Shown here piece by piece: positions 2,487 to 59,286 of a stretch of DNA of 64,000 bases. This stretch comes from an uncultured Pseudomonadota bacterium (lineage in GTDB: Bacteria; Pseudomonadota; Alphaproteobacteria; UBA9219): assembly GCA_903919315.1 (NCBI GenBank), contig CAIXHP010000026.1, forward strand, positions 10,428 to 74,427, read 5' to 3'. Under the pieces are notes generated by a model. That model was not told where the DNA came from. It saw nothing but the letters and a program-made list of their open reading frames with translations, and did not search any database. How positions within the stretch are numbered: the stretch's first letter is position 1; each line of letters opens with the position of its first letter. The translations under genes were made by a program, and so were the position numbers.

Positions 2487-2732
2487 TCAGGGGTTGGGCG
2501 CGGCAGGAGTGGCTTTTTTCATTTTCAAAGCCCAAACCGCTTCAGAAAATTCACCAATGGACTTGATATAACTAGAAACCCAAGCCACAGCATTTTTGCC
2601 GCATTCTCTGAACTCCGCCCGCACACGATCAGGTTCTTGCATACATGCCACACCAGTTGCACCCAACAACACAGCAGCAGCAGCCGAAAGAAACGCCGCC
2701 TTATACCGATAATGCTTATCATCACTCTTCAT
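2487..2732 (-). CDS. Small hypothetical protein (81 aa) with an N-terminal hydrophobic segment ending in a Cys (possible lipoprotein or signal peptide)
   Basis: ORF in a lower-GC stretch downstream of the NrdJ-like gene. LLGATGVAC motif. Weak support. Confidence 0.3.
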   Translation of the reverse strand: MKSDDKHYRYKAAFLSAAAAVLLGATGVACMQEPDRVRAEFRECGKNAVAWVSSYIKSIGEFSEAVWALKMKKATPAAPNP

Positions 2733-2879
2733 GAAACACTCCTTTCAAAGAAAAAGCACGTCGAGAGACTAAATCCCACCGGGTAAAAGTTCAAGCGCCC
2801 AAATAAATCATTGTAATATCAATGACCTAATGGCATCCCTTGACGAAGCCGTTCGGAACATAAAAACGGGGCATGCAGT

Positions 2880-5030
2880 TCAGCGCCGCTTTTCTCTCTG
2901 TCCCACAACTTCCGTTGCCGGATGCTTCAGCCCCACGGCGCGAGGAGCCACTTTCAGCTTGGTCGCCGTACGCGGCGCGGTCATCTGCGCGGTGGTTGGT
3001 TTGAGCGCCAACGATGCCGGAGTCGCCGGAGGACGCGGTGCGGAGCGCTTCAAAAGTTTCTTACGCGGCAGAATATGGACAGCAGGCGGGGCCATCCGCT
3101 CCGGCGCAACAAACCCGTCGGAACAGAACGTCAAGCTCCGCACACCCAACCGCCACGCCAAAAGTAGAACCTCTGAGCGCCGTTCCGGCATGTTCTCACC
3201 GCCGAGGGCCACAATCAGCCCTGCATCGCCCGTGATAAAGCTCTGCACAGCCGCCGCCATACGAACCTGCGCAGAAGTCCCCGCCAACGCGAAAATTTTT
3301 TCAACGGCTGGCGGAAGCTCGGAAGCCCCAACCACCGTGCCATGGCCGCAACTGTAGGCATTCGCGGCGGCAATATCGGCCTCCGAAAACCCCATATGGT
3401 GCAGTAAGTCAAAGCCGAAGTCGTCCATCTGCTCGTCCGTTATGCCCAAATGCTCGCGGCAAAATTCTTGCCCCAAAATCCATGGCGTAAAGGCATGGCG
3501 GATGTCGTTGACGCGCGGCAAGTAATCTTCAACCCGTGACAGCGCCGCCGCATCGAACCCGCGCTCGCGCAGCACCGAATGATTGACTCCCGGAGCCGCC
3601 ACAAGCGTTCCCGTGCCGAGCGCATAGTCAACGATGCCTTTGATGTCAAACGGGTCGCAACCCGTCTTAGCCAGAGCCAACGGCACGGCGGGGTGGATCG
3701 CGCGGTGATAAAGATCGGGCGCGACCGACCGAGGCCGCACAAGATGGGCCTCCGGCCCGATCCCCTGCGCCGAACAATCGAGGAAAGCCGCAAACTCGGC
3801 CGATGAGAACAACGTTGTCAGATGCAGGTGGCACAACCCATTTTGCTGCGCCAGTTCCACAGCCCTGTCCCACAGCCGCCGCGCTTCGGCTATCACCACC
3901 AAATCGACTCCGGCGGCGATTTCCAACGGCACAGGCAGGATCGAAAGCCGTTCATAGTCGTTGCGCTCGCCATAGGCCGAGCGGCGCTGGTTGCGCAGCG
4001 AACGCATGCGTATCTCGCGCTCGTCAATGAACGCGTGGCAGGGGCCGAGCAATGCGGCCAATTGGGCCGAGGTCGCGACCGCTTCCGCCGTTATGATCGC
4101 GCTGATCCCCGCCGCCGTAGCCCGCGCCGCATCGCCGTCAAAGGGCAGGGCCATCGACATCAACAGCGCGGCAAGATTGCCGTAACCGATAGCCAGAGCG
4201 CGTGACGCGTCGGCAGCGTCCGCCAACTGATCATAATGCAGCTCTAGCAGGATCACCGAAAGCCGCACCGCCTGCTGCAACGCCGGAACATCCAAGCTCC
4301 CGTCGTCGCGCCGTAGCCGGAGCAGGTCGATCATCAAGCGCGGCGCGGTGCTGGCGGGACTTGCCCCCCACTCGGCCTTCGTGTCGGTGAAATCCAATTC
4401 CAGCGCACCACGGCCATTGTCCGCGCGCATAAGCTTCTGCCATTGGCTTTGCAGCGTTGCGTTGCCGTTGCTCAATACCCTATCCAGAGTCGCGTTGCGC
4501 ACAGCAACCGCGCCAACCGAATCCGCCGCACCGACAGTTTCAAAATCAGGCGAGGGAACCGGCGCGGCGGGCGCGGCCATCGCTTGCGGCGCAACGCCAT
4601 AAGCCCAGTTGATCCCTAACCGCGCCAATCGGCGCGGCTCTAAGGCGATGACCCGTTCCGCTAGCAACGCGCGAATTTCGTCATAGAAAATTGAGGCTTC
4701 GGCTTCGTCGGCAAACAATCCCTTTTTCCAACCGGTGTATGTCGCCGATCCGGCCACACGGTCGAACACTTGCTGCGCGCTGTTCTCGTTGGTGACGGCA
4801 GCGCCGGCGCTGCGGCGTTGCCACAACCATGAGGGGAGGGTGTTCTCTTCGATCGGCAAGCGTTGAGTCGGAATGGATCGCGCAAGCGCGCTCACGAAAA
4901 CCTGAATGGCTTCGGCGCTCCAATCGCGCGGCGCACCGACGGGTTCGGTGTCGGCATCCGTATGCGCCTCAAAGCGGCTTTGGTCATAAGGGCTGGTCTT
5001 GTCGGCGGTGAACAGACGTTCCATCAGCAT
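2880..5030 (-). CDS. Class II (B12-dependent) ribonucleotide reductase NrdJ-like protein. It appears truncated and degenerate (716 aa versus about 1200 aa for canonical alphaproteobacterial NrdJ) and has a Pro/Ala/Lys-rich C-terminal tail.
   Basis: N-terminus (RLFT..SPY..LPSWLW..SAQQVFDRVAG..TYTGWKKGLF..FYDE..WAYGV) and C-terminal half (FTPWILGQEFCREHLGITDEQMDDFGFDLLHHMGFSEADIAAANAYSCGHGTVVG) resemble NrdJ, but the central finger-loop/active-site Cys region is missing. Confidence 0.6.
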   Translation of the reverse strand: MLMERLFTADKTSPYDQSRFEAHTDADTEPVGAPRDWSAEAIQVFVSALARSIPTQRLPIEENTLPSWLWQRRSAGAAVTNENSAQQVFDRVAGSATYTGWKKGLFADEAEASIFYDEIRALLAERVIALEPRRLARLGINWAYGVAPQAMAAPAAPVPSPDFETVGAADSVGAVAVRNATLDRVLSNGNATLQSQWQKLMRADNGRGALELDFTDTKAEWGASPASTAPRLMIDLLRLRRDDGSLDVPALQQAVRLSVILLELHYDQLADAADASRALAIGYGNLAALLMSMALPFDGDAARATAAGISAIITAEAVATSAQLAALLGPCHAFIDEREIRMRSLRNQRRSAYGERNDYERLSILPVPLEIAAGVDLVVIAEARRLWDRAVELAQQNGLCHLHLTTLFSSAEFAAFLDCSAQGIGPEAHLVRPRSVAPDLYHRAIHPAVPLALAKTGCDPFDIKGIVDYALGTGTLVAAPGVNHSVLRERGFDAAALSRVEDYLPRVNDIRHAFTPWILGQEFCREHLGITDEQMDDFGFDLLHHMGFSEADIAAANAYSCGHGTVVGASELPPAVEKIFALAGTSAQVRMAAAVQSFITGDAGLIVALGGENMPERRSEVLLLAWRLGVRSLTFCSDGFVAPERMAPPAVHILPRKKLLKRSAPRPPATPASLALKPTTAQMTAPRTATKLKVAPRAVGLKHPATEVVGQREKRR

Positions 5031-6342: not shown

Positions 6343-6728
6343 GGACGCTGCAACGCTTCTCTCTGCTGACGGGAGCTTTGCTGTCGCTAACGTCCATGGC
6401 GCAGGCCGCTGTTCCCACGGAAAGCCGTCCGGTGGCCGTCCTGCGCGCGCTCGACAAAATCACGGCGCGGGTTGAAGAAGTTATCGTCCCCATCGAACGC
6501 CCCTTGAAGTTCGGGACGCTGATGATCGTCGTTCACACCTGCCGCGTCACGCCGCCAGAGGAAACGCCGGAAGCCGCCGCCTTTCTCGATGTCAGCGAGT
6601 TTAAGCCCGGCGAGAACGGAGCGACGATTTTTCGAGGCTGGATGTTTGCCTCCAGTCCCGCGCTGTCGGCCATGCAGCATCCGGTTTATGACTTATGGGT
6701 GACGGGGTGCAAGGATTCGGCCCAGTGA
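6339..6728 (+). CDS. Periplasmic DUF2155-like protein
   Basis: Signal peptide ([11 protein letters not shown]), about 100-aa domain. ATGA overlap with the upstream MlaD-like gene. Typical third member of this alphaproteobacterial trio. Confidence 0.55.
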
Positions 6729-7357
6729 TCCCATGTGACCGTGTCGGGTTTGGCTAAGGCGTGGCCCTGCTCGGCCGCAATTCCCAACAAGTGGCGGTAA
6801 TTTTCGCGCGTGAGTTCCATCGTGCCGAACTGGCTGAGATGATCAGTCTGGAACTGCGTATCGAGCAGCGAGAATCCTGAGGCGCGGAGAAGGGCCACAA
6901 GATACACCAGCGCGATTTTGCTGGCATCCGTCGCTCGGCTGAACATGCTCTCGCCAAAAAACGCGCCGCCGAGGCTGACGCCGTACAATCCCCCCACCAG
7001 CTCGTCGCCGCGCCACGCTTCAACGCTGTGCGCGTGACCTTGCCGGTGAAGCGTGGTGTAAAGCTGAATAATTTCTTGATTGATCCACGTCAATTCGCGG
7101 TCAGGCGCCGGAGCCGCACACGCGCGGATTGTGTCTCCAAAAGCAGTGTTCAGACGGATCGCGTAAGGCCGTTGGCGGATCGTCCTCCGCAAGCGGCGCG
7201 GCACATGAAAAGCGTCATCCAAAGGAATAACCGCCCGCACCGGCGGATCATACCAACGCAACTCTCGCGACTCCGCGCTCTCCGCCATCGGAAAAATTCC
7301 GGCGGCGTAAGCGCGCAGCAGGATGTCGGGGGTGAGAATGAAGGTGCGGCTGGACAT
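6686..7357 (-). CDS. aat: Leucyl/phenylalanyl-tRNA--protein transferase
   Basis: [15 protein letters not shown]. and the GESMF motif. Start taken at MSSRTF so that it abuts accC with a 2-nt gap. Confidence 0.85.
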
Positions 7358-7359
7358 GC

Positions 7360-8700
7360 TTACTTCAACCCCAAGAACCCCTCCAGCCAATGAATGTCAT
7401 AGTCGCCGTTGATAAAGTCCGGCTGGCTGATGATGCGGCGGTGGAGCGGTAGGGTTGTGTCGATGCCGCCTATGACGAATTCTTCCAGCCCGCGCCGCAG
7501 ACGCAAAAGGCATTCGTTGCGGTTGGAGCCGTGGACGATCAGTTTGGCGATCATGCTGTCGTAATGCGGCGGCACGCGATAGCCGTCGTACAGCGCGCTG
7601 TCCACGCGAACGCCAAGGCCGCCGGGAGCGTGAAAATCGCTGACTTTGCCGGGCGAGGGCGTGAATGTATCCGGGTTTTCCGCGTTGATCCGGCATTCAA
7701 TGGCATGACCGGTGAAAACGATCTCGCTCTGCTTATAGCTGAGCGGCAAGCCCGCCGCGACGCGGATTTGTTCGCGCACAAGATCCACGCCGGTGATCAT
7801 CTCGCTGATCGTGTGTTCGATCTGCAAGCGCGTATTCATCTCGATGAAGTAGAACTTTCCGTTTTCATAAAGAAATTCAATCGTGCCGACTCCGCGATAC
7901 CCAAGATCGCGCACCACCTTGGCGGCTAGTTCACCGATCTTGTTCCTTTCGTCGGCGTTAAGGCCGGGGGAGGGGGCTTCCTCGATGACCTTCTGATGGC
8001 GGCGTTGGATCGAACAGTCGCGTTCGCCAAAATGCACCGCGTTGCCGTGCGTGTCGCCAAGCAGTTGGACTTCGATATGGCGCGGACGGGTAAGGTATTT
8101 CTCCATATAGACTTCGTCGTTGCCAAAAGCGGCAAGGGCTTCGCCCCGCGCCAGCTGATAGGCCTCGACCAAGTCTTCAGGACGCTGCGCGACCTTCATG
8201 CCTTTGCCGCCGCCGCCCGCCGCCGCCTTGATCAGCACGGGATAGCCGATTTCTTCGGCAACCTTAGCCGCCATCTCCACCGTCGGAACGCCGCCGTCCG
8301 AGCCGGGGACGGTGGGCAAGCCCAAAGCCTTCACCGTCTGTTTGGCCGTCACCTTATCGCCCATCAAGCGGATGTGTTCGGGGGTGGGGCCGATAAAAGT
8401 GAAACCGTGTTCCTCGACCATTTCCGCGAACTGCGCGTTCTCTGACATAAAGCCGATGCCCGGATGGATCGCGTCCACGCCCGTGATCGCCGCCGCCGTC
8501 AAAATCGCCGGAATATTGAGATAGCTGTCCCGCGCCGCCGGAGGCCCAATGCAAACGCTCTCGTCCGCCAACCGCACATGCATCGCGTCGGCATCCGCCG
8601 TGGAATGCACCGCCACGGTATGAATCCCCATCTCGCGGCAAGCCCGATGGATCCGCAAAGCAATTTCGCCACGATTGGCAATCAGGATTTTTTCAAACAC
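7360..8700 (-). CDS. accC: Acetyl-CoA carboxylase biotin carboxylase subunit
   Basis: [17 protein letters not shown]... ATP-grasp fold, 446 aa. Confidence 0.95.
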
Positions 8701-8715
8701 GGGCTATTTCCTTTG

Positions 8716-9594
8716 TCATTGATACGGCTTCGCAACACGATAATAAGCCTTTGGAGCCTTTTCATATTTCTTGAGAATGCCGTCAACAGCTCCATCGACC
8801 GCCATTTGCTTCACAACACCATCCAGCAAGCTCTGCAATTTGAACTCGCCCTTGTTGACCAGAAGAACAACAGGGTACGCATGCAGCGGGCGATCAAGCC
8901 CGATACCACGCAGCGTTCCCGGATTTTTCTCTAAATACTCATAGGCGATTTGATTTTCCAAAAAGGTAACATCGGCTTTGTGATTGGCGACGTTCAGCGG
9001 GTTAAATGTGTAGTCCGATGTCGACGGCGCGGACAGGACGGAAGCGTTCGGAAACTCTTCCCGAGCCAACACGCTGCCGATGCTTCCATCAATAGCGGAA
9101 ATTTTAACGTCCGGCGCGTTGATCATGTGTACGTCCGCATCGAAACGATGATCGTCCGGTCGCACCCAAGCGGTAATGCCCGCATAAAAGGCTGGCCCGA
9201 CCAGCTCTGCATTCTTGATTTCCTGCTCAAGACTAAACCCAGCCCCACAAAAAGCGTCATAGCGTCCGAACTGAAGCCCCGTGAAGTATGTTGCCCAAGT
9301 AACCTCTTCGACCCAATCAACTTTCAGCCCCAGCCGCTTTGCCGCTTCCTCGGTGATGTCATACATAATGCCCGACAGCTTGCCTGTGTTTGGGTCTTTA
9401 ATGGTATGGGGGGAACTGACAACGTAGCTGCATCGCAGCGTATTGTTCTTCACCACCTGATCATAGGCCGTTTGGCTGCCGAGGCTCGTCACAGCTGGTG
9501 GCGACAAAGGGTTTCTCTGAATCATCTGAACAGCCAAAGTGGCCGCCACCGCGATTATGGCCGTCAGAAGATATTGGCTGGTTCTGCTGGACAT
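8716..9594 (-). CDS. Periplasmic solute-binding protein, family 3 (amino-acid ABC-type SBP fold). No permease or ATPase genes adjacent.
   Basis: Signal peptide. LRCSYVVSSPH..D.NTGKLSGIMYDI..LGLKVDWVEE..GRYDAFC..PAFYAGITAWVRPDD. Paralogous to 56789-57640 and 57664-58563. Confidence 0.75.
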   Translation of the reverse strand: MSSRTSQYLLTAIIAVAATLAVQMIQRNPLSPPAVTSLGSQTAYDQVVKNNTLRCSYVVSSPHTIKDPNTGKLSGIMYDITEEAAKRLGLKVDWVEEVTWATYFTGLQFGRYDAFCGAGFSLEQEIKNAELVGPAFYAGITAWVRPDDHRFDADVHMINAPDVKISAIDGSIGSVLAREEFPNASVLSAPSTSDYTFNPLNVANHKADVTFLENQIAYEYLEKNPGTLRGIGLDRPLHAYPVVLLVNKGEFKLQSLLDGVVKQMAVDGAVDGILKKYEKAPKAYYRVAKPYQ

Positions 9595-9717
9595 GGTCAG
9601 GCGGCTCCTCTGTTCGACTCTTAATGCGCGACCTGTTCACAGTGGGTTGTTGTGATAGCCACGAGCTGCAGTTTGCTGGTCGCCAATAGTCCTTGTGCTA
9701 GAGATCGATCCTTCGCG

Positions 9718-10167
9718 TTACGCGATCACCACCAGCGTCTCGCCGAATTCGACCGGCTTGGCGTCGGCGGCGGGGATTTCGGCGATGGTTCCGGCTTTGG
9801 GAGCCTTGATGGGGTTCATCACCTTCATGGCTTCGATGATCAGCAGCGTATCGCCCGCCTTAACCTTGTCTCCTACCTTAATGAAAGGCGGCGCGTTGGG
9901 GGCCGGGCCGAGATACACCGTCCCTACCATCGGCGAGGTGACGGCTGTGCCGCTCGGCGCCTCGGGTTTGGCTTCAGCCGCTGCGGCAGCAACAGGCGCG
10001 GCCGCCGCAGCGGCGGGAGCCGCCATCTGGACAACGGAAACCTGCGCGGCCACGCGAATGCGCTTGTCGCCTTCGGCATATTCGATTTCGCTCAGTCCTG
10101 TATCTTTCAGCAATTCAGCCAATTTGCGGACAAATTTCGTATCAAGGTCAAATGTACTCATGATCAT
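9718..10167 (-). CDS. accB: Biotin carboxyl carrier protein of acetyl-CoA carboxylase
   Basis: C-terminal biotinyl domain EAMKVMN. Ala/Pro-rich linker. Confidence 0.9.
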   Translation of the reverse strand: MIMSTFDLDTKFVRKLAELLKDTGLSEIEYAEGDKRIRVAAQVSVVQMAAPAAAAAAPVAAAAAEAKPEAPSGTAVTSPMVGTVYLGPAPNAPPFIKVGDKVKAGDTLLIIEAMKVMNPIKAPKAGTIAEIPAADAKPVEFGETLVVIA

Positions 10168-10631
10168 TTCCTAGTGGATGAAGAAATCAGTTTCGCCATG
10201 CGGCGCAGCGCAAAAGCGTAGCCGTCAATGCCCATGCCGCTGATGGAGCCGACGGCGACGGTCGCGACGTAAGAATGATGACGGAATTCCTCGCGCGCAT
10301 GAACGTTGGTCACATGCACTTCGATTACCGGCACGGCGGCGATCTTGATGGCATCGAGCAACGCGATCGAGGTATGCGAATAGGCTCCGGCGTTGATGAC
10401 GATGCCTTGAAACGCCGTCCGGCTTTCCTGAATCCATGTGACCAGTTCGCCTTCGTGATTGCTTTGGCGGCAGGTGACACTTAGCCCCAGTTCGGAGGCC
10501 GTCTTGCGGCACAGTTCCTCGACATCGCCAAGCGTGGCGGAGCCGTAAAGATCCGGCTCGCGCACGCCCAGCATGTTCAGATTGGGGCCGTTCAGCACCA
10601 AGATCTGCGATGATGTATTCACGGCCTGCAA
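10164..10631 (-). CDS. aroQ: 3-dehydroquinate dehydratase, type II
   Basis: ILVLNGPNLNMLGVREP..YG..TL; 155 aa. ATGA overlap with accB. Confidence 0.9.
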   Translation of the reverse strand: MQAVNTSSQILVLNGPNLNMLGVREPDLYGSATLGDVEELCRKTASELGLSVTCRQSNHEGELVTWIQESRTAFQGIVINAGAYSHTSIALLDAIKIAAVPVIEVHVTNVHAREEFRHHSYVATVAVGSISGMGIDGYAFALRRMAKLISSSTRK

Positions 10632-10645
10632 CCTGCTGTGTGACG

Positions 10646-11404
10646 TTACTTTTTGGCGTTCTGGCGCGCCGTATCCACGGCTTGCTTCATCTGATCGTAC
10701 TGCATAGCGCCGGGATAGACCTGCTCGCCGATCACAAAGGTCGGCGTGCCGCGCGCGCCGATTTGGCTGCCAAGCTCCAGATTGGCCTTGACGATCTTTT
10801 CGATGGACTCGTCGTCCATGTCCTTCTTCAGCTTCTCAAGGTCAAGGCCGGTATCCTTGGCCACCTTGAGAACGATGTCCTCGGTCAAATGCGCTTTGGT
10901 CGCCATCAGGGCGTTATGGAACGCCTCATACTTGTTCTGACGAACGCTGGCCAAAGCCGCCCTGCTGGCTTGAACCGAGCCTTCACCCAAGATGGGGAAT
11001 TCCTTGTAGATCAGCTTAACATTCTTGTCGGTTTCCATCAATTTAACGATGGCTTCATGCGCCATTTTGCAATAACCGCACTGATAGTCGAAAAATTCCA
11101 CCATCGTGACGTCGCCCTTAACGTTGCCGACGACCGGAGCGTTCGCGTCATTGAAAATCTTGTCGCGGCTGGTGGACAAGGCCTTTTGCCCTTGACTGGC
11201 AATGTCCTTCTCCTCACGGCTTTGGGCTTCATGAGCCGCCTTGATGACCAGATCGGGTTCTTCCTTGGTCAGCAGACTGCGGACGAGTTCCTTAACTTCC
11301 GCCTGTTGGGCCTCGGTCAACGCGGCGGGAGCATCGGCGGCGAACGCGAACGCAGGCATCAGGATGATGGCGGTGGCGCTAAGGTACTTGGCGATGGCGT
11401 GCAT
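10646..11404 (-). CDS. DsbA-family periplasmic thiol:disulfide oxidoreductase
   Basis: Signal peptide, CGYC thioredoxin active site, 252 aa. Confidence 0.8.
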   Translation of the reverse strand: MHAIAKYLSATAIILMPAFAFAADAPAALTEAQQAEVKELVRSLLTKEEPDLVIKAAHEAQSREEKDIASQGQKALSTSRDKIFNDANAPVVGNVKGDVTMVEFFDYQCGYCKMAHEAIVKLMETDKNVKLIYKEFPILGEGSVQASRAALASVRQNKYEAFHNALMATKAHLTEDIVLKVAKDTGLDLEKLKKDMDDESIEKIVKANLELGSQIGARGTPTFVIGEQVYPGAMQYDQMKQAVDTARQNAKK

Positions 11405-11462
11405 TCATAAACTCCCACAGCAGATGGTTGAAGGGCCAGAGAACCAAGTTTTGACCCGCAAG

Positions 11463-12899
11463 TCAACGATGGCCCTCGGTATCGATACTCAACTTAATAT
11501 CTTGGGCGCGAAGCCAATAAGGTGTTGATTTCGGCAGAACTTTTAGCGCTCTATCCGCGAATTGCTGCGCTTCCTTATCCGCTCCCCGCGCTACGGCTTC
11601 TTCGGCCAGAGCGTAGGAGACTAAACCCTCATACTGTTGATCTTTTGTTAATTCCGCCTTTTTCCCCCATGCGGAGGCCAAAAACCGCCACGTTTCGGGT
11701 TCCCGCTCCTCTAACCGATTCGCCTCGGTCAGTTGGCGGATGGCGAGGTCAAGATTGTCGGCGTTCTTGCTCTCCAGTAAGGCATGGCCATAGGCGACGC
11801 GGAGGAGGGCCGAATCGGGCAGGAGATCGACCGCTTTTTTGTAGAGCGCTACAGCTTCGTCGACCCGGCTGTTCTCGAACAGCATCTGCGCCTTTAACTC
11901 GTAAAAAAACGGATTGTCCGGCTCTTCACGCAACAGTCCATCCGTCAAGGCCAAGGCGCGGGGCAGCTGGTTGGTTTGGTAAAAAGCGATGGCGCGGGCG
12001 TAACGAGCGGAAATGCGGGGATCTTTGTCGGTCGTGCGCAAGAGCGCGGTCTGCGGTTGGAGGAAGCCCATAAGCTTAGCCTTCATGCGCTCATGCATAA
12101 CCTGAAATTTCGGGTCTTCATGAGAGTCCGCATACGGCGAGGTTTCCAAATGGTGCGCGACAGCGTCAATACGGTCTTGCGTCAAAGGATGGGTGCGCAC
12201 GTATTCAACCTGCCGGTCGCTGGGGAGCAATTCTTGTCCCGCGAGCTTTTTCATAAACGCCAGCATGCCGTTTGACGAAACACCCGCGCGATCCAGAAAC
12301 GACAGTCCGGCCGCATCCGCCGAGGATTCCTGGGCGCGACTGAAACTTAGCAAACCGCGCTCGGCAACATTTTGCGCTCCGCTGATCGCCGCCGCGGTCG
12401 CCTGTCCATTGCCGCTGGCGACACCCGCCGCGACACCCAGCACCATGCCAAGGATGGCTTGGGCGGAGGCGTTGCGCATGGCCTCGCTGCCGCGCACCAG
12501 ATGGCCGCCCGCGATATGGCCGGTTTCATGGGCGATGATTCCGGCTAACTGTTCCGGACTCTCGGTCATTTGCAAAAGACCGGTGAAGAAAAACTCGTTC
12601 ATGCCGCCCGCGACGAAGGCGTTGACGGCGTTGCTCTTGATCAGGGCGATGCTCACGGCGTTGGGGTCAATGTCGGCGGCGCGAAAGATGGGCGTGGCCA
12701 GCGTCCGCAGGTAATGCTCGATCTCGGCATCGCGGATAAACTCAAAGTGAGGGGCGCGTTGCGCCTGTGCGGGAAGGGCAAAGCCAGCGCACAACGTCAG
12801 GATCAGGGCAAGCCGCCATGCCCCTCTGCGCCAAGCGTTCGGGCGCGATTTCTGGGCAAACGCGCGTCGGAACGCGGCAAACATACGATGAGACCCCAT
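11463..12899 (-). CDS. M48-family Zn metallopeptidase with C-terminal TPR repeats (BepA/YfgC-like)
   Basis: HETGH motif. Signal peptide after an alternative start at MFAAF. TPR-like C-terminal half. Confidence 0.8.
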   Translation of the reverse strand: MGSHRMFAAFRRAFAQKSRPNAWRRGAWRLALILTLCAGFALPAQAQRAPHFEFIRDAEIEHYLRTLATPIFRAADIDPNAVSIALIKSNAVNAFVAGGMNEFFFTGLLQMTESPEQLAGIIAHETGHIAGGHLVRGSEAMRNASAQAILGMVLGVAAGVASGNGQATAAAISGAQNVAERGLLSFSRAQESSADAAGLSFLDRAGVSSNGMLAFMKKLAGQELLPSDRQVEYVRTHPLTQDRIDAVAHHLETSPYADSHEDPKFQVMHERMKAKLMGFLQPQTALLRTTDKDPRISARYARAIAFYQTNQLPRALALTDGLLREEPDNPFFYELKAQMLFENSRVDEAVALYKKAVDLLPDSALLRVAYGHALLESKNADNLDLAIRQLTEANRLEEREPETWRFLASAWGKKAELTKDQQYEGLVSYALAEEAVARGADKEAQQFADRALKVLPKSTPYWLRAQDIKLSIDTEGHR

Positions 12900-31335: not shown

Positions 31336-32844
31336 ATGCCAGAGGGTTTCGTTTCCTCAATGAGTTTATGCGAAAGGGTTTTTGCTATGGCGAATTGGTT
31401 TAGCAAATTCATTGGCAGCAGGTTAGTGACCAGAGTCGGTATTCCCGATATAGACGAACACGAACTAATGGCAACGCCGAGTCCGGACTCACAATACAGG
31501 CAGACCTTCGCAGTAGAATCTATGGGAACATCTGACGCGAGTATAGTGCCCCCACGCAATGCCTTGAGGCTGCTAGCGACGGAGCAAGCAGCACGCGTCG
31601 AAACAGATCAGCCGGGACATATTGGAACTAGACAGGAAGGTGCCGATGTTACGGCGCCACCGAATGAACCCGAACCACTCGCCGCCAAGAAACCAGCCAA
31701 GATTTACAAGATGAGGCGACCTTGGCCTTTGGACTCAGGTGCCAACACGGCCCCAGACCCGCACTATACTAAGTTCCAGACCCCCACCGTTGATCGCCTT
31801 AGAGCCCACGGGAATCAAACAGCCCCTATCGACACGCCGGATTACGCGATCTACGAGACTCCTTTTTTCCTAAGGCAGCTCGGCGGCCTTATCACGCTTC
31901 CTCTATTTGCCGAGGGATTGGAAGCAAAGACAGTGGCTGGACAATCTGATATTTTACCGAGAACCATGAGTATCAGCAGACCCCAAACGGACGCCACAGA
32001 AACATATGATTGGCTCGACCTTCCTGAGTTTCTTGGAGCACATGCTTTCCCGCCAACACATAATCCGCAAGACATCCCTGCCTTTTTCCAAACACCCGCA
32101 GGGCCAACAGCCCAAGAGGAACCACCGCTCGCACCTTGGATCACACATTATACAAATGCTTTTGGTGCGCTCAGTCATGAACAGGTCGGGCCTGTCACAC
32201 ACTTCCATTTTTCGGATCGCACGCGCAGTACGGTCTCGCTCCATCGTGCCGCTGATCCGGCCCAATACCGCATCACCGCGACTCCGGGTCTGACGGATGG
32301 AATGGCCAGACTGATCGTTCTGGCGGGGCATAAAGAAATGGGCGGAATCCGCCTTGATACCGAGGCATCTCAGGACGACAAACTGAGACTGTATGTAGCC
32401 GCCCAAACGGTTCTTCTTGAGCGTATGCTTGATGATGTGAGATCAGGAAATCTGGCCACTACAAACCCAGAGTTGGTGGAAATCGTCGCAGGCCGCAGTC
32501 GGCCTCCGGTCGTTGTCTTCGAAGACGGCACAGCGCCACAGGGTGGCCTTTTCAGACCAGCGCCAGAAGTAGCTACTGCTGTTGACGCGCATATTGCCAG
32601 AACAAGACAAGAACTTCTTGCTGAGCTTCAAGCAGCCATAACTACGCCTACACAGACAGCTAATCAACCAGCGCAAGATAGCGGTCGTCTGGGGAAACCA
32701 CACAGAGCTAATCACTCTCTTCTGACCACACCGTCGCAACAGGGCAGTGCCTCGCCTCAAGGGACGGTTAGGAAAAGACGAAGCAACAGGTCTCATGCGA
32801 GTGCGCCCACCACTAGGATGCCATCACCAGGCTCCGCCATCTAA
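31336..32844 (+). CDS. Hypothetical protein (502 aa, or about 485 aa from MANWF). No recognisable domain. Lower GC than the surroundings.
   Basis: Long ORF divergent from fliF, Pro/Thr/Gln-rich, no signal peptide. Composition drop over 31100-33000. Confidence 0.5.
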   Translation: MPEGFVSSMSLCERVFAMANWFSKFIGSRLVTRVGIPDIDEHELMATPSPDSQYRQTFAVESMGTSDASIVPPRNALRLLATEQAARVETDQPGHIGTRQEGADVTAPPNEPEPLAAKKPAKIYKMRRPWPLDSGANTAPDPHYTKFQTPTVDRLRAHGNQTAPIDTPDYAIYETPFFLRQLGGLITLPLFAEGLEAKTVAGQSDILPRTMSISRPQTDATETYDWLDLPEFLGAHAFPPTHNPQDIPAFFQTPAGPTAQEEPPLAPWITHYTNAFGALSHEQVGPVTHFHFSDRTRSTVSLHRAADPAQYRITATPGLTDGMARLIVLAGHKEMGGIRLDTEASQDDKLRLYVAAQTVLLERMLDDVRSGNLATTNPELVEIVAGRSRPPVVVFEDGTAPQGGLFRPAPEVATAVDAHIARTRQELLAELQAAITTPTQTANQPAQDSGRLGKPHRANHSLLTTPSQQGSASPQGTVRKRRSNRSHASAPTTRMPSPGSAI

Positions 32845-45600: not shown

Positions 45601-48444
45601 TCAAGCCCGCTTTTTCGTCCGTAGGCCCCTGCGTTCCAAATAAGGGGCCAGATAGCGGGCGGTGTAACTTGCGGCCACCGAGGCCACATCCTCCGGCGTG
45701 CCGCTGGCGACGATTTGACCGCCGCCGTCGCCGCCTTCGGGGCCGAGGTCGATGATGTGGTCGGCGGTTTTGATGACTTCAAGGTTGTGTTCGATCACGA
45801 CCACGGTATTGCCCTGATCGACCAGCGTGTGCAGTACCTCAAGCAGTTTTTCCACGTCGGCGAAGTGCAACCCCGTCGTCGGTTCGTCGAGAATGTAGAG
45901 CGTCTTGCCTGTCGCGCGGCGCGACAGTTCCTTCGCCAACTTCACCCGCTGCGCCTCGCCGCCGGAAAGTGTGGTTGCGGCCTGCCCGATTTTGACATAG
46001 CCAAGCCCGACACGCTCCAGCGTCGCCATCTTGTCGCGGATCGACGGCACGGCGGCAAAGAACAAAGCGCCTTCCTCAACCGTCATGTCCAGAATGTCGG
46101 CGATGGACTTCTCGCGGTAGGTGACTTCGAGCGTCTCGCGGTTGTAGCGCTTGCCGTGGCAGGCATCGCACGTTACGAAGACATCCGGCAGGAAGTGCAT
46201 TTCGATCTTGATAACGCCATCACCCTCGCAAGCCTCGCAGCGTCCGCCTTTGACGTTGAACGAGAACCGCCCCGGCCCATAGCCTCGCGCCTTTGATTCA
46301 GGTAAACCAGCAAACCACTCGCGGATCGGCGTAAACGCCCCCGTATAGGTGGCCGGGTTCGAGCGCGGCGTGCGACCGATGGGCGATTGATCGATGTCCA
46401 CAATTTTGTCGATATGCTCGATGCCTTTCAGCGCGTCATGCGCTCCCGGAATTTCACGGGCGTTGTTGAGCTTCTTCGCCAAAGCCTTGTAGAGCGTTTC
46501 GATCACCAACGTCGATTTTCCACCGCCCGACACGCCCGTAACGCAGGTGAACGTGCCGAGGGGAAAACGCACATTGATGTTTTGCAGATTGTTTTCGCGC
46601 GCGCCGATCACTTCAAGCCATTTGCCCTTATGACCGCCCCGCCGCGTGGCCGGAAGGGGGATTTTCCGAACGCCGCTGAGATATTGCGCCGTGATGCTGT
46701 CCGGATTGGCCATAACTTCATCGGGCGTACCCGCCGCAATGACATGACCGCCATGCACGCCCGCGCCCGGCCCCATGTCGATGAGGTAGTCGGCGGTACG
46801 AATGGCATCCTCGTCATGCTCGACCACCAGAACCGTGTTGCCGAGATCGCGAAGGCGCTTCAGCGTGGCCAGCAAACGGTCGTTGTCGCGTTGATGCAGC
46901 CCGATCGAAGGCTCGTCCAGCACATACAGTACCCCCGTGAGGCCGGAGCCGATTTGCGAGGCAAGGCGAATACGCTGGCTCTCGCCGCCCGACAACGTGC
47001 CGCTGCCCCGCGCCAAGGTCAGATATTCAAGCCCGACATTGTTGAGAAATCCCAGACGGTCATTGATTTCTTTAAGCACCCGCGCCGCGATTTCGCGTTG
47101 TTTGGGTGTCAGGCGCGGCGACAAACCTGCAAACCACGCGCCTGCCGCCTTGATCGAGAATGCGGTTACCTCGCTGATGTTTAGCCCATCAATTTTGACC
47201 GCCAGAGCTTCCGGCTTCAAACGCTGCCCGCCGCACACGTCGCAGGGCTTGCTGGCCTGATAGCGCGACAATTCCTCGCGCATCCAATTGCTTTCGGTGG
47301 TTCGCCAACGACGCTCCAGATTCTTGAGAACCCCTTCAAACGGCTTGTCGTGTTTATAGGTATGGTTGCCGTCCTGATAGGTGAAAACGATTTTCTCGTC
47401 GCCGCTTCCGTGCAGGACAATCTGGCGAAAGCGTTCGTCCAAATCTTTCCACGGCGTCGCCATATTGGCTTTATAGGCGCGGCAGAGGGCCGTGAGAATC
47501 TGCATATAAAAGGTCTTCCACGGCGCAATCGCTTCGTCCGACAGGCTGAGGTTTGTGTCGGGCACCACCAGCGCCGGATCGAAATACAGTTTTTCGCCCA
47601 ACCCGTCGCAGGCCGGACACGCCCCGTGCGGATTGTTGAACGAAAACAAGCGCGGCTCGATCTCGTCAATCGTGAAGCCGCTGACGGGGCAGGCGAATTT
47701 GGCGGAGAAGACCAGATGCTTGTCCGCGCCCACGACTTCGACAAACAACAGTCCGTCCGCCAGTTTCAACGCCGTTTCGACGGAGTCCGCGAGACGGTTG
47801 CCGAGGTCGGGCTTGACCACCACGCGATCCACGACGACGGCTATATCGTGCTTCAGCTTCTTATTGAGAGTGGGCGCGTCTTCGATGTCGTAGATTTCGC
47901 CGTCGATTTTGACGCGCTGGAAACCTTGCTTGCGCAAGTCGTTCAGTTCCTTGCGATACTCGCCCTTACGGCCGCGCACGATGGGGGCGAGGAGGAGGAG
48001 CTTGGTACCCTCCGGCATCGCCTTGATGCGATCCACCATCTGAGTCACGGTCTGGCTTTCTATGGGCAAGCCCGTCGCGGGCGAGTAAGGCACGCCGATA
48101 CGCGCGAACAGCAACCGCATATAGTCATAGATTTCGGTGACGGTGCCGACCGTCGAACGCGGATTGCGCGATGTCGTCTTTTGCTCGATGGAAATGGCGG
48201 GCGAGAGGCCGTCGATGCCGTCAACGTCCGGCTTTTGCTGCATCTCTAAAAACTGCCGCGCGTAGGCCGACAGGCTTTCGACATAGCGCCGCTGCCCCTC
48301 GGCATAGATGGTGTCAAAGGCCAGCGACGACTTCCCCGAACCGCTCAGACCCGTGATGACGACAAGCCGGTCGCGCGGCATCGTCACGTCGATGTTCTTG
48401 AGATTGTGTTCGCGCGCGCCGCGCACATGAAGCGTCTGTTGCAT
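45601..48444 (-). CDS. uvrA: Excinuclease ABC subunit A
   Basis: 947 aa. Two ABC ATPase modules and Zn-finger cysteines. Confidence 0.95.
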
Positions 48445-56788: not shown

Positions 56789-57640
56789 CTACCTAAAAGC
56801 GGGCGCAACCCGCCGATACGAACCCGGCTGCTTCTCATGCGCCGCAATTGCCCGTTCGATAAACCCATTGTTGTGCAAATTTCGGATATCGTTGTTCAGC
56901 ATATCCGCCAACCGGTTCTCTCCTTGTTTTATCATAAAGGCATTGGTTAGGACGCGAACAGGTTGATCGGGTGTCACATTCTGCATCGCGCGAGGATTGT
57001 GACGTTCAAACTCAAAAGCCTGCGCCGCCTCGGTAAAGGTCACGTCAGCCTTGCCGACTTTGACGTTCAGCAGCAACTGCGAAAAGTCGGTAAGGTCCGG
57101 CACGGAAAAGGTCTTTGCCAAGGGATAATCTTCGCTGGCGATCCGCGCCGCAAGACCACCATCAAGCGTCGCAATGGTAATCGAAGGCGAATTGATCGCC
57201 GCAAGATTGCCATTAAAACGATTGTCGCCCGTGCGCGCATAAACATTCATCGCTGTATAATACACAGGTGTCGTAAACAGGGCCACGGTGCCACGCAACG
57301 AATCCGTCCAAACGCTCGTACACATCAGGTCGTAACGTCCTGTGTTTAAACCTTCAATCATCGAAGCCGGGCCGACCTCCTCCTTCCACTCGACATTCAG
57401 CCCCAAATCTTTGGCCAAACGCGTGATAATATCATAGGAAATGCCGGAAAAAGCCCCCGTGTTGACATCTTTGATCAAGCTGGGCGGATAAACGATATAC
57501 CCGCAACGAAGCGTCTTCGTTTCCATAATCCTGTCGAAAACAGAGGTGGAAACATCTGGTGTTTTTTTTGCCGACCCTGATACCGGATCACATCCGGATA
57601 AAACAATCACGGCCAGAGCGAGCAGGGCGGTCAAACGCAT
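56789..57640 (-). CDS. Periplasmic solute-binding protein, family 3 (paralog 2). Lipoprotein-type signal (LSGC).
   Basis: LRCGYIVYPPS..D.NTGAFSGISYDI..LGLNVEWKEE..GRYDLMCTSVW..PVYYTAMNVYAR. Paralogous to 8716-9594. Confidence 0.75.
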   Translation of the reverse strand: MRLTALLALAVIVLSGCDPVSGSAKKTPDVSTSVFDRIMETKTLRCGYIVYPPSLIKDVNTGAFSGISYDIITRLAKDLGLNVEWKEEVGPASMIEGLNTGRYDLMCTSVWTDSLRGTVALFTTPVYYTAMNVYARTGDNRFNGNLAAINSPSITIATLDGGLAARIASEDYPLAKTFSVPDLTDFSQLLLNVKVGKADVTFTEAAQAFEFERHNPRAMQNVTPDQPVRVLTNAFMIKQGENRLADMLNNDIRNLHNNGFIERAIAAHEKQPGSYRRVAPAFR

Positions 57641-57663: not shown

Positions 57664-58524
57664 TTATTCGCGGAAACTCGGCGCAGGAACAAAATAGCCT
57701 GTATCGTACTTCTTGCGAATTTTCTCCATAACGCCATTGTCGATAAGAACCTGCAAACCCGCGTTCATCATGGCCATAAATTGCGGGTCGCTTGGCGGAA
57801 GCGCTAAAATGTGCGGCAGTATTCGCAGAGGCCGCACGCCAGAAACGGCCCTTAGCTTGCCGGGATTAGCCGCCATGAACGGCTTAATCTCATCCGGATC
57901 CATGGTGGCAACATCAGCTTTTTTTGTAATCACGGTCATGAGGTATTCCGCGCTTTGCACCAGTTGCGGCAAAGCGGTAATTTTTGACGAAGGAAACTGT
58001 TCGGCAACCAACGGGCTTAAAGGAGCCCCATCAATGACAACGAACGTCACATCCGGTTGGTTAAGGCGTTCGGGATTGCCATCAAAGCGGTTGTCATCGG
58101 CTCGCACATAAAGTTGAGGTGCGCTGTAAAAAATCGGGCGGCTGAGCAACAAGTTTTTCAACTTGGGCGCATCGATCCAAGCAGACGTGCACACAGCGTC
58201 ATAGCGATTGGTCTTGAATCCCTCGCCGATATTCCCCCAGCCAATTTCCTCAACCCAATCAATCTTGAGATCAAGAACTTTTCCGAGTTCCATCATGATG
58301 TCGTAGTTCAAGCCCGTAGGCTGGGTGTTCCCGTCCTTCAACTCAGTGTAATAATAAGGTTTCCAATTGACATAACCGCAACGCAGAACGCCGCTCCGAA
58401 CGACATTGTCGCGCACGGAAAGGCGCTCGACGGAGGGCGCATCAGTCTTCCCAAATCGGGCAAAAATCAATCCGACCAGAACGCCCGCGATGAGGCAGGT
58501 CAGCACCAAAGGAAGTTTTTTCAT
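57664..58524 (-). CDS. Periplasmic solute-binding protein, family 3 (paralog 3). ORF extends to 58563; MKKLPLVL start preferred.
   Basis: LRCGYVNWKPY..GLNYDI..LDLKIDWVEE..NRYDAVCTSAW..PIFYSAPQLYVRADDNRF. Tandem with paralog 2. Confidence 0.75.
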   Translation of the reverse strand: MKKLPLVLTCLIAGVLVGLIFARFGKTDAPSVERLSVRDNVVRSGVLRCGYVNWKPYYYTELKDGNTQPTGLNYDIMMELGKVLDLKIDWVEEIGWGNIGEGFKTNRYDAVCTSAWIDAPKLKNLLLSRPIFYSAPQLYVRADDNRFDGNPERLNQPDVTFVVIDGAPLSPLVAEQFPSSKITALPQLVQSAEYLMTVITKKADVATMDPDEIKPFMAANPGKLRAVSGVRPLRILPHILALPPSDPQFMAMMNAGLQVLIDNGVMEKIRKKYDTGYFVPAPSFRE

Positions 58525-58671
58525 GGAGGTCTCCACAAAGCCGAAACGCTTTTCCGGAGCCATCGTACTAGCGTGGGCATGGTACCCACAAGCGGTTATT
58601 CCCGCGCTCCGCCCAAGAAAAAAGGCGGAGGGTTTCCCCTCCGCCTTTGTTCCTGCAACGCCTGACGGCGC

Positions 58672-59286
58672 TTAGCGCGAATAGTATTCGATGACGAGGT
58701 TCGGTTCCATCTGGACAGGGTAGGGAACGTCGCCCATCGCCGGAGCGCGGACGAAGGTGCCCTTCATTTCCTTGTGGTCGACCTGCACATAGTCCGGCAC
58801 GTCGCGCTCGGCCAATTCGATGGCGGCGAGAACGGGGACGAACTGCTTGGCCTTGCCGCGCACTTCAATGACGTCGCCGTCCTTGACCTGATACGAAGCG
58901 ATGTTGACCTTTTTGTTGTTGACCAGAATGTGGCCGTGGCTGACCAACTGCCGCGCGGCAAAAACCGTCGCGACGAATTTCATGCGATAGACCACCGCGT
59001 CGAGGCGGCGTTCCAAAAGTTGGATCAGGTTCTCGCCGCTGTCGCCCTTGCGACGGAAGGCTTCTTCGTAATAGCGCAGGAACTGGCGTTCGCCGACGTT
59101 GCCGTAGTAGCAGCGCAGGCGTTGCTTCGCGAGCAACTGCACGCCAAAGTCCGAAGGCTTGTGGCGGCGCTGGCCATGCTGGCCGGGGCGGTAATCGCGC
59201 TTGTTGAGGGGGCTCTTGGGGCGGCCCCAGAGGTTCACGCCCAAACGGCGGTCGATTTTATGCTTGGATTGCAAACGTTTCGTCAT
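58672..59286 (-). CDS. rpsD: 30S ribosomal protein S4
   Basis: KRLG..LWGR..S4 domain, 204 aa. Confidence 0.95.

Follow-up and report, generated by a model that had tools for sequence, protein, structure and literature searches.

We analysed a 64,000-nt stretch of DNA from an uncultured alphaproteobacterium (contig CAIXHP010000026.1; the whole stretch is hereafter called the window), in which a gene encoding a family-3 solute-binding protein (SBP) separates the acetyl-CoA carboxylase genes accB and accC. The list of open reading frames (ORFs) and the sequence gave the minus-strand order dsbA-like, aroQ, accB, SBP gene, accC and aat, with the following features.

10646-11404, minus strand: DsbA-like gene (from the ORF list)
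10164-10631, minus strand: aroQ, type II 3-dehydroquinate dehydratase (PF01220, E 1.5e-59; TIGR01088, 203 bits)
9718-10167, minus strand: accB, biotin carboxyl carrier protein (TIGR00531, 123 bits against a cut-off of 115; PF00364)
9595-9717, minus strand: 123-nt spacer from the accB stop to the SBP start
8716-9594, minus strand: orphan SBP_bac_3 gene, 292 amino acids (PF00497, E 8.8e-15)
8701-8715, minus strand: 15-nt spacer from the SBP gene to accC, CAAAGGAAATAGCCC, which carries the accC Shine-Dalgarno sequence
7360-8700, minus strand: accC, biotin carboxylase, GTG start (TIGR00514, 723 bits)
6686-7390, minus strand: aat, leucyl/phenylalanyl-tRNA-protein transferase (TIGR00667, 216 bits)

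The aroQ gene is the first of the conserved aroQ-accB-accC block and overlaps the accB start by 4 nt, and accB is intact, its translation containing the biotinylation motif EAMKVM. The SBP gene and its two spacers put 1017 nt between accB and accC, which are not immediately adjacent here. These coordinates agree with a first-pass annotation of the same DNA, which had placed an SBP gene between accB and accC, on the same strand and 15 nt from the accC start; the gene order and the Pfam/NCBIfam assignments likewise agree with the contiguity of aroQ-accB and of accC-aat that it had reported. That the gene truly belongs to SBP family 3 is borne out by the PF00497 score (55.1 bits against a gathering threshold of 26.4). 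The same accB-SBP-accC arrangement recurs on contigs that were assembled independently from four or more ENA samples. As for aat, gene calls on the sister contig indicate that its true start is probably just past the accC stop, the database call being 223 amino acids long.

In Escherichia coli, accB and accC are carried on one mRNA, which is autoregulated by AccB (PMC3896788). As in that operon, accB precedes accC on the same strand in the window; unlike it, the two genes are split here by a foreign segment made of the long spacer and the SBP gene. To place this arrangement among relatives, accC was surveyed at 80 metagenomic loci (65-88% protein identity), about 71 of which showed both accB and accC. 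The two genes adjoin each other in all of these ~71 loci, usually with a gap of 3-35 nt, and an SBP gene lies between them in none. Conversely, at 76 loci carrying homologs of the SBP, none had accB, accC, aroQ or aat within 6 kb of the homolog. The window AccC is 90% identical to the proteins P0123-P0127 and P0130 and 89% identical to P0128 and P0131, and the closest comparison used five relatives with AccC 89-90% identical. In three loci with this level of identity (L159, L160 and L163) accB-accC is uninterrupted, with a gap of 9-20 nt, and two of them (L159 and L163) are otherwise syntenic with the window through an M48 peptidase gene, dsbA, aroQ, accB, accC, aat and the DUF2155, mlaD and NDUFA12 genes. 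Since the SBP gene is absent from the junction in these relatives, the insertion is confined to the species-level lineage of the window and the placement is not ancestral. The first-pass annotation had called the placement unusual and proposed a synteny comparison, which upholds that view. At one locus with a 71% identical AccC (L113), a member of the SBP family occurs at 1195-2118, on the strand opposite to accB (3460-3924) and ~1.3 kb upstream of it; its neighbour is a 4-hydroxyphenylpyruvate dioxygenase-like gene, it lies outside the accB-accC junction, and this proximity is probably a coincidence.

The same junction hosts other cargo. Two AccC proteins 90% identical to that of the window, encoded on three contigs, are accompanied by a different insert between accB and accC, a two-gene pair consisting of PF08780 (NTase_sub_bind) and PF18765/PF01909 (nucleotidyltransferase) members (L162 1454-2178; L164 3276-4000; L165 326-1050). 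This pair resembles HepT/MntA toxin-antitoxin modules. On a more distant alphaproteobacterial contig (L125), a DUF559 endonuclease-like gene (~2668-3140, E 2.5e-34) occupies a 505-nt accB-accC gap. Three unrelated cargos are thus found in the accB-accC spacer across different alphaproteobacterial lineages, and the junction is not inviolable. The description of accB-accC as "otherwise universal" in the first-pass annotation was right as to contiguity, which the ~71 loci display, and slightly overstated as to universality, in view of the cargo in L162, L164, L165 and L125. The window locus alone matters little; what it adds is that a 1-kb insertion is tolerated within accB-accC, a pair commonly regarded as an operon that cannot be split, and that accC may be expressible through a foreign gene.

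Every NCBIfam equivalog model scored far below its own cut-off for the SBP, which identifies it as a divergent family-3 binding protein to which no specific ortholog can be assigned. An AlphaFold2 model built from a 109-sequence alignment reached a predicted local distance difference test (pLDDT) value of 94.1 and a predicted template modelling (pTM) score of 0.84. The modelled chain opens with a hydrophobic helix at residues 5-25, which a linker of low confidence joins to a type-II bilobal binding domain starting at about residue 43. The top Foldseek match was 5t0w, AncCDT-1 (template modelling (TM) score 0.88, target-normalised; E 7.6e-22), and the further matches were ligand-bound amino-acid SBPs. 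A sequence-profile search of the PDB agreed, with amino-acid-binding proteins as best matches and the cyclohexadienyl dehydratase lineage also among them. In sequence and model alike, the hydrophobic helix is preceded by Arg4 and lacks a lipobox Cys; several Melainabacteria homologs carry a Cys after the hydrophobic stretch. The protein may be exported and tethered to the membrane.

The binding pocket departs from the canonical one. At the column of the alpha-carboxylate-binding Arg (R85 in AncCDT-1), the window SBP has Glu125 when aligned with hmmalign and a one-residue deletion when aligned with phmmer, so that the Arg is missing by both methods. An Arg is present at this column in 91 of 131 family members, and Glu or Asp occurs there in the nearest clade (L001-L003). 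For binding of the alpha-ammonium group, the window SBP retains an acidic residue, Glu213, at the position of D170 in AncCDT-1. Because the canonical Arg is replaced or deleted, the ligand may be something other than a standard alpha-amino acid in the canonical binding mode. The pocket has diverged among paralogs and points to no particular ligand.

A protein search recovered 343 homologs of ~290 amino acids, the nearest of them (P0002, from a 1.1-kb contig) 55% identical, and the family context was studied at the 76 homologous loci, fetched with a 10-sequence alignment. The hosts are uncultured Micavibrio-like Alphaproteobacteria and Melainabacteria/Obscuribacterales. Many of the alphaproteobacterial metagenome-assembled genomes (MAGs) are labelled Micavibrio or "Bdellovibrionales", the order in which NCBI places Micavibrio; the labels Nomurabacteria, Harrisonbacteria, Paceibacteria and Actinobacteria, also seen among hosts, look misbinned or mislabelled. 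A rough neighbour-joining tree nested the Melainabacteria copies among alphaproteobacterial paralog lineages, which hints at transfer of the family between phyla. We found no description of this subfamily in the literature on Micavibrio transporters.

The SBP genes form tandem arrays of up to 6 genes, and their sole recurrent neighbours are genes for a BPD_transp_1 permease of ~220 amino acids (40 of 76 loci) and an ABC_tran ATPase of ~260 amino acids (37 of 76); the remaining loci hold orphan SBPs. At least six MAGs contain both ATP-binding cassette (ABC)-linked and orphan loci, namely JAQUYN01 (L034, L074), CAZHEZ01 (L036, L057, L071), JAXLXI01 (L004, L054), JADYXS01 (L006, L063), JAKFUT01 (L017, L047) and CAWKBA01 (L008, L060). 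Tandem arrays, permease and ATPase neighbours and coexisting orphans together mark a single small importer that works with many binding proteins. Several of the orphans sit at the following sites.

L075 5956-6867: orphan between nuoL and nuoM
L003/L167 and L061 (two MAGs): orphan between pepA and holC
L013: two orphan copies between glpD and glpK
L064: orphan between anmK and gatC
L056: orphan before pntB
L009: orphan after dnaB

The orphans inside housekeeping pairs lie on the same strand as their neighbours, with spacers of 0-30 nt. The accB-accC position is one instance of this apparent family-wide habit of sitting inside housekeeping pairs.

The window itself contains two further members of the family, which had been overlooked in the first-pass annotation.

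56789-57640, minus strand: SBP paralog 2 (tblastn E 1.8e-53; PF00497, 64 bits; 34% identical; GC 0.516)
57664-58563, minus strand: SBP paralog 3 (tblastn E 1e-41; PF00497, 66 bits; 33% identical; GC 0.513)

They are arranged in tandem directly downstream of rpsD (58672-59286; PF00163 and PF01479), beside a DUF2333 gene and cysS. Paralog 2 keeps the canonical Arg, and paralog 3 has Lys at that column. A tblastn search of the 64-kb window with the family's own permease and ATPase returned nothing better than E 0.65, and the only LSGGQ-type signatures in the window were in a 947-residue ORF (45601-48444), presumed from its size and its two signatures to be UvrA. The statement that ABC permease and ATPase genes are missing near the SBP gene can therefore be extended to the entire window.

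Taken together, these results make it fairly probable that the product of the accB-accC copy is an orphan binding protein that serves, in trans, an ABC importer whose genes lie elsewhere, and that its expression comes from the aroQ-accB-accC transcript. It would be an exported, probably membrane-tethered type-II binding protein of an expanded polar-amino-acid (PAAT)-type SBP_bac_3 subfamily, whose members would pass their ligands on to a small ABC importer with one permease gene and one ATPase gene. This copy and the orphan paralogs at 56.8-58.6 kb would serve an importer encoded outside the window. The insertion would have entered the short accB-accC spacer in this species-level lineage alone, bringing along a leader of ~110 nt and its own Shine-Dalgarno sequence and leaving that of accC intact. 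The SBP gene would then ride on a constitutive aroQ-accB-accC transcript, and its placement would passively reflect which sites can accept and retain an insertion, rather than any regulatory tie to fatty-acid synthesis.

Known systems offer partial models for such an arrangement. The protein resembles the SBPs of PAAT-type ABC importers (HisJ/LAO with HisQMP, ArtJ, AncCDT-1) in its SBP_bac_3 membership and type-II bilobal fold, in the conserved ammonium-binding acidic residue and in the single BPD_transp_1 permease and single ABC_tran ATPase genes that adjoin family members. Unlike them, it shares at most 27% identity with any solved protein, starts with a hydrophobic anchor or signal followed by a linker, has Glu or no residue in place of the carboxylate-binding Arg, and is encoded away from a transporter, inside accB-accC, within a family that combines arrays of up to six genes with many dispersed orphans. 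HisJ and LAO share the HisQMP translocator, and a comparable sharing of one translocator by several binding proteins is proposed here. In E. coli, FliY is encoded apart from its transporter YecSC. The orphans of the present family likewise have their gene separated from permease and ATPase genes and are presumed to act in trans; unlike FliY, they are numerous and embedded in core housekeeping operons, and their partner is a presumed one.

Several points weigh against this interpretation. The 64-kb window, which is the sole part of the genome available, contains neither the partner permease nor its ATPase. All members of the clade to which the window copy belongs (L001-L003, L021) are orphans, so that this clade may no longer dock on the importer, and the loss of the canonical Arg leaves room for a role other than transport. 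The apparent habit of sitting inside housekeeping pairs may owe something to the genomes concerned, which appear gene-dense. Finally, a promoter to which a sigma-70 consensus scan is blind in this organism could lie in the 123-nt spacer.

This last point bears on transcription. No intrinsic terminator was predicted in 8701-9717, and a consensus scan of 7000-11600 gave no sigma-70-like promoter match, such scans being weak evidence in Alphaproteobacteria. GAGGAG lies 10 nt ahead of the SBP ATG and AAGGAAA 8 nt ahead of the accC GTG. In a junction alignment, the ~14 nt that directly follow the accB stop, TAACGCGAAGGA, are similar to the spacer stretch next to accB, with its Shine-Dalgarno sequence, in sister genomes, and the 15-nt spacer in front of accC resembles the native accB-accC spacer of L160, AAAAGGATTAGCCCT. 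As both ends resemble the native spacers of relatives, the insert lies inside the old spacer with both Shine-Dalgarno contexts kept. The remainder of the 123-nt spacer is without relatives; blastn found only contigs of the same species. Predicted folding of the 123-nt spacer was not superior to that of shuffled sequence (z = +0.89), and no Rfam family matched it; we therefore rejected a riboswitch, an attenuator or a small RNA there. The only Rfam hit in the region, a sub-threshold isrG match inside accB (9920-10041, minus strand; 18.5 bits against a gathering threshold of 100, E 0.07), is almost certainly due to chance. We also considered the spacer as a relic of the toxin-antitoxin-like cassette of L162/L164 and rejected it: the local alignment score was 21 against 18.2 +/- 2.3 for shuffles, blastn and tblastx gave no match, and only the first ~14 nt agree.

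Co-transcription of the SBP gene with accC, as the first-pass annotation had suggested, is very probable given the 15-nt gap and the missing terminator. We infer that accC is read through the SBP gene, because accC is presumably indispensable and lies 15 nt downstream with no terminator in between. An unlikely alternative is that the SBP gene forms a transcription unit of its own, with a promoter in the 123-nt spacer driving both it and accC and uncoupling accB from accC. At 123 nt the spacer far exceeds the native 9-20 nt, and it lacks homologs; it thus arrived with the insert and could carry its own promoter, which the consensus scan might have missed. Against this, the scan found no sigma-70-like site anywhere in the scanned region, no terminator follows accB, so that read-through from upstream is expected regardless, and the orphans in other genomes have just 0-30 nt upstream.

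Base composition raised the question of whether the SBP gene was recently acquired as a foreign gene or mobile cassette, a horizontally transferred islet. The accB-accC copy has a GC content of 0.520 and a third-position GC content (GC3) of 0.584, against means of 0.596 and 0.71 for the genes of the window, and the three SBP copies of the window range over 0.513-0.520 for GC and 0.58-0.59 for GC3. The nearest homolog is merely 55% identical and the family is common to Alphaproteobacteria and Melainabacteria, which also speaks for a foreign origin. The same low GC is, however, shared by the three window paralogs although they are 33-34% identical, and the SBP gene has a lower GC than its neighbours in 59 of 72 loci. 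In the other hosts of its clade, SBP genes lie 5-8.5 GC points under their neighbours whatever the host GC (0.40 against 0.49 for the host region, 0.48 against 0.55 and 0.52 against 0.60). An offset that recurs across hosts and tracks host GC characterises the family rather than a donor, and we rejected low GC as proof of recent transfer. The insert also lacks the hallmarks of a mobile element: no terminal repeats, target-site duplication, integrase, transposase, extra ORF or attC-like structure was found, and the only repeats bracketing it were short chance matches. A 40-nt stretch of the gene (9139-9178) is identical at 39 of 40 nt to 6408-6447 of L004/L005, from Obscuribacterales MAGs, the proteins being ~43% identical. 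This would fit a foreign gene; it could be a trace of exchange or reflect a strongly constrained motif (WVRxDDxRF). On balance, a recent foreign acquisition appears quite unlikely.

A more speculative proposal, which we consider doubtful, is that the orphans may spread by a so far unrecognised, scar-free mechanism that targets short spacers in highly expressed core operons, the clade of the window copy, in which an acidic residue replaces the carboxylate-binding Arg, having perhaps been retuned to a non-amino-acid ligand. Candidate targets may be accB|accC, nuoL|nuoM, pepA|holC, glpD|glpK and the position after rpsD. If true, such spread would equip Micavibrio-like bacteria with a constitutively expressed set of membrane-tethered receptors that supply a single small ABC importer.

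The first-pass annotation had suggested that the placement might couple a binding or sensor protein to the expression of acetyl-CoA carboxylase. In this explanation the SBP would have been recruited to the accBC operon to track the enzyme, for instance by importing or sensing a lipid- or biotin-relevant compound. The common strand, the 15 nt to accC and the missing terminator agree with it, as do the stability of the arrangement over at least four samples and the non-canonical pocket with Glu125 replacing Arg. However, none of the relatives examined, close or distant, has the arrangement, and the same junction hosts selfish-looking cargo elsewhere that is unrelated to the SBP. At least three orphan paralogs are present in the window, and sister copies occur in nuo (nuoL-nuoM), pepA-holC, glp (glpD-glpK), anmK-gatC and rpsD contexts; orphans inside such unrelated housekeeping pairs argue against a specific tie to fatty-acid synthesis. 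Nothing in the SBP family points to lipids, and the sensor option found no support, as permease and ATPase genes adjoin about half of the family loci. Coupling to acetyl-CoA carboxylase is thus very unlikely. For annotation, the lesson is that operon context is an unsafe guide to function in this SBP subfamily. The wider pattern is more useful than the locus, an uncharacterised, expanded SBP_bac_3 subfamily with arrays by a single permease/ATPase pair and orphans in core operons. If the orphans feed one importer, they would represent a compact way to widen the substrate range in small genomes and a natural data set on which operon junctions tolerate insertions.

The presence of aroQ two genes upstream, and of the cyclohexadienyl dehydratase lineage among the best PDB matches, brought up the idea that the protein is a periplasmic cyclohexadienyl dehydratase, an SBP-fold enzyme acting with AroQ in aromatic amino-acid metabolism. 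It does share the fold and, by sequence score, the SBP_bac_3 branch of PheC/PaCDT. Its best match is, however, AncCDT-1, a reconstructed ancestor that binds amino acids and is not catalytic (profile E 1e-35; the value for PaCDT is 1.7e-18), and the general-acid residue Glu173, whose substitution E173Q abolishes cyclohexadienyl dehydratase activity (10.1101/157495), aligns with Ile216 here. With the family linked to ABC permease and ATPase genes, we rejected this identity as highly improbable and do not count the protein as a member of that enzyme group.

An assembly or binning artefact joining unrelated fragments, which the evident origin of the source in a metagenome assembly might suggest, can be practically discounted, because the order was recovered in independent assemblies with identical junctions on both sides in different samples (L077, L078 and two further contigs), the 1017-nt insert being 100% identical between L077 and L078. 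Elsewhere in the window, a 502-residue ORF at 31336-32844 on the plus strand has the lowest GC3 (0.487, against the mean of 0.71), below that of the SBP genes.

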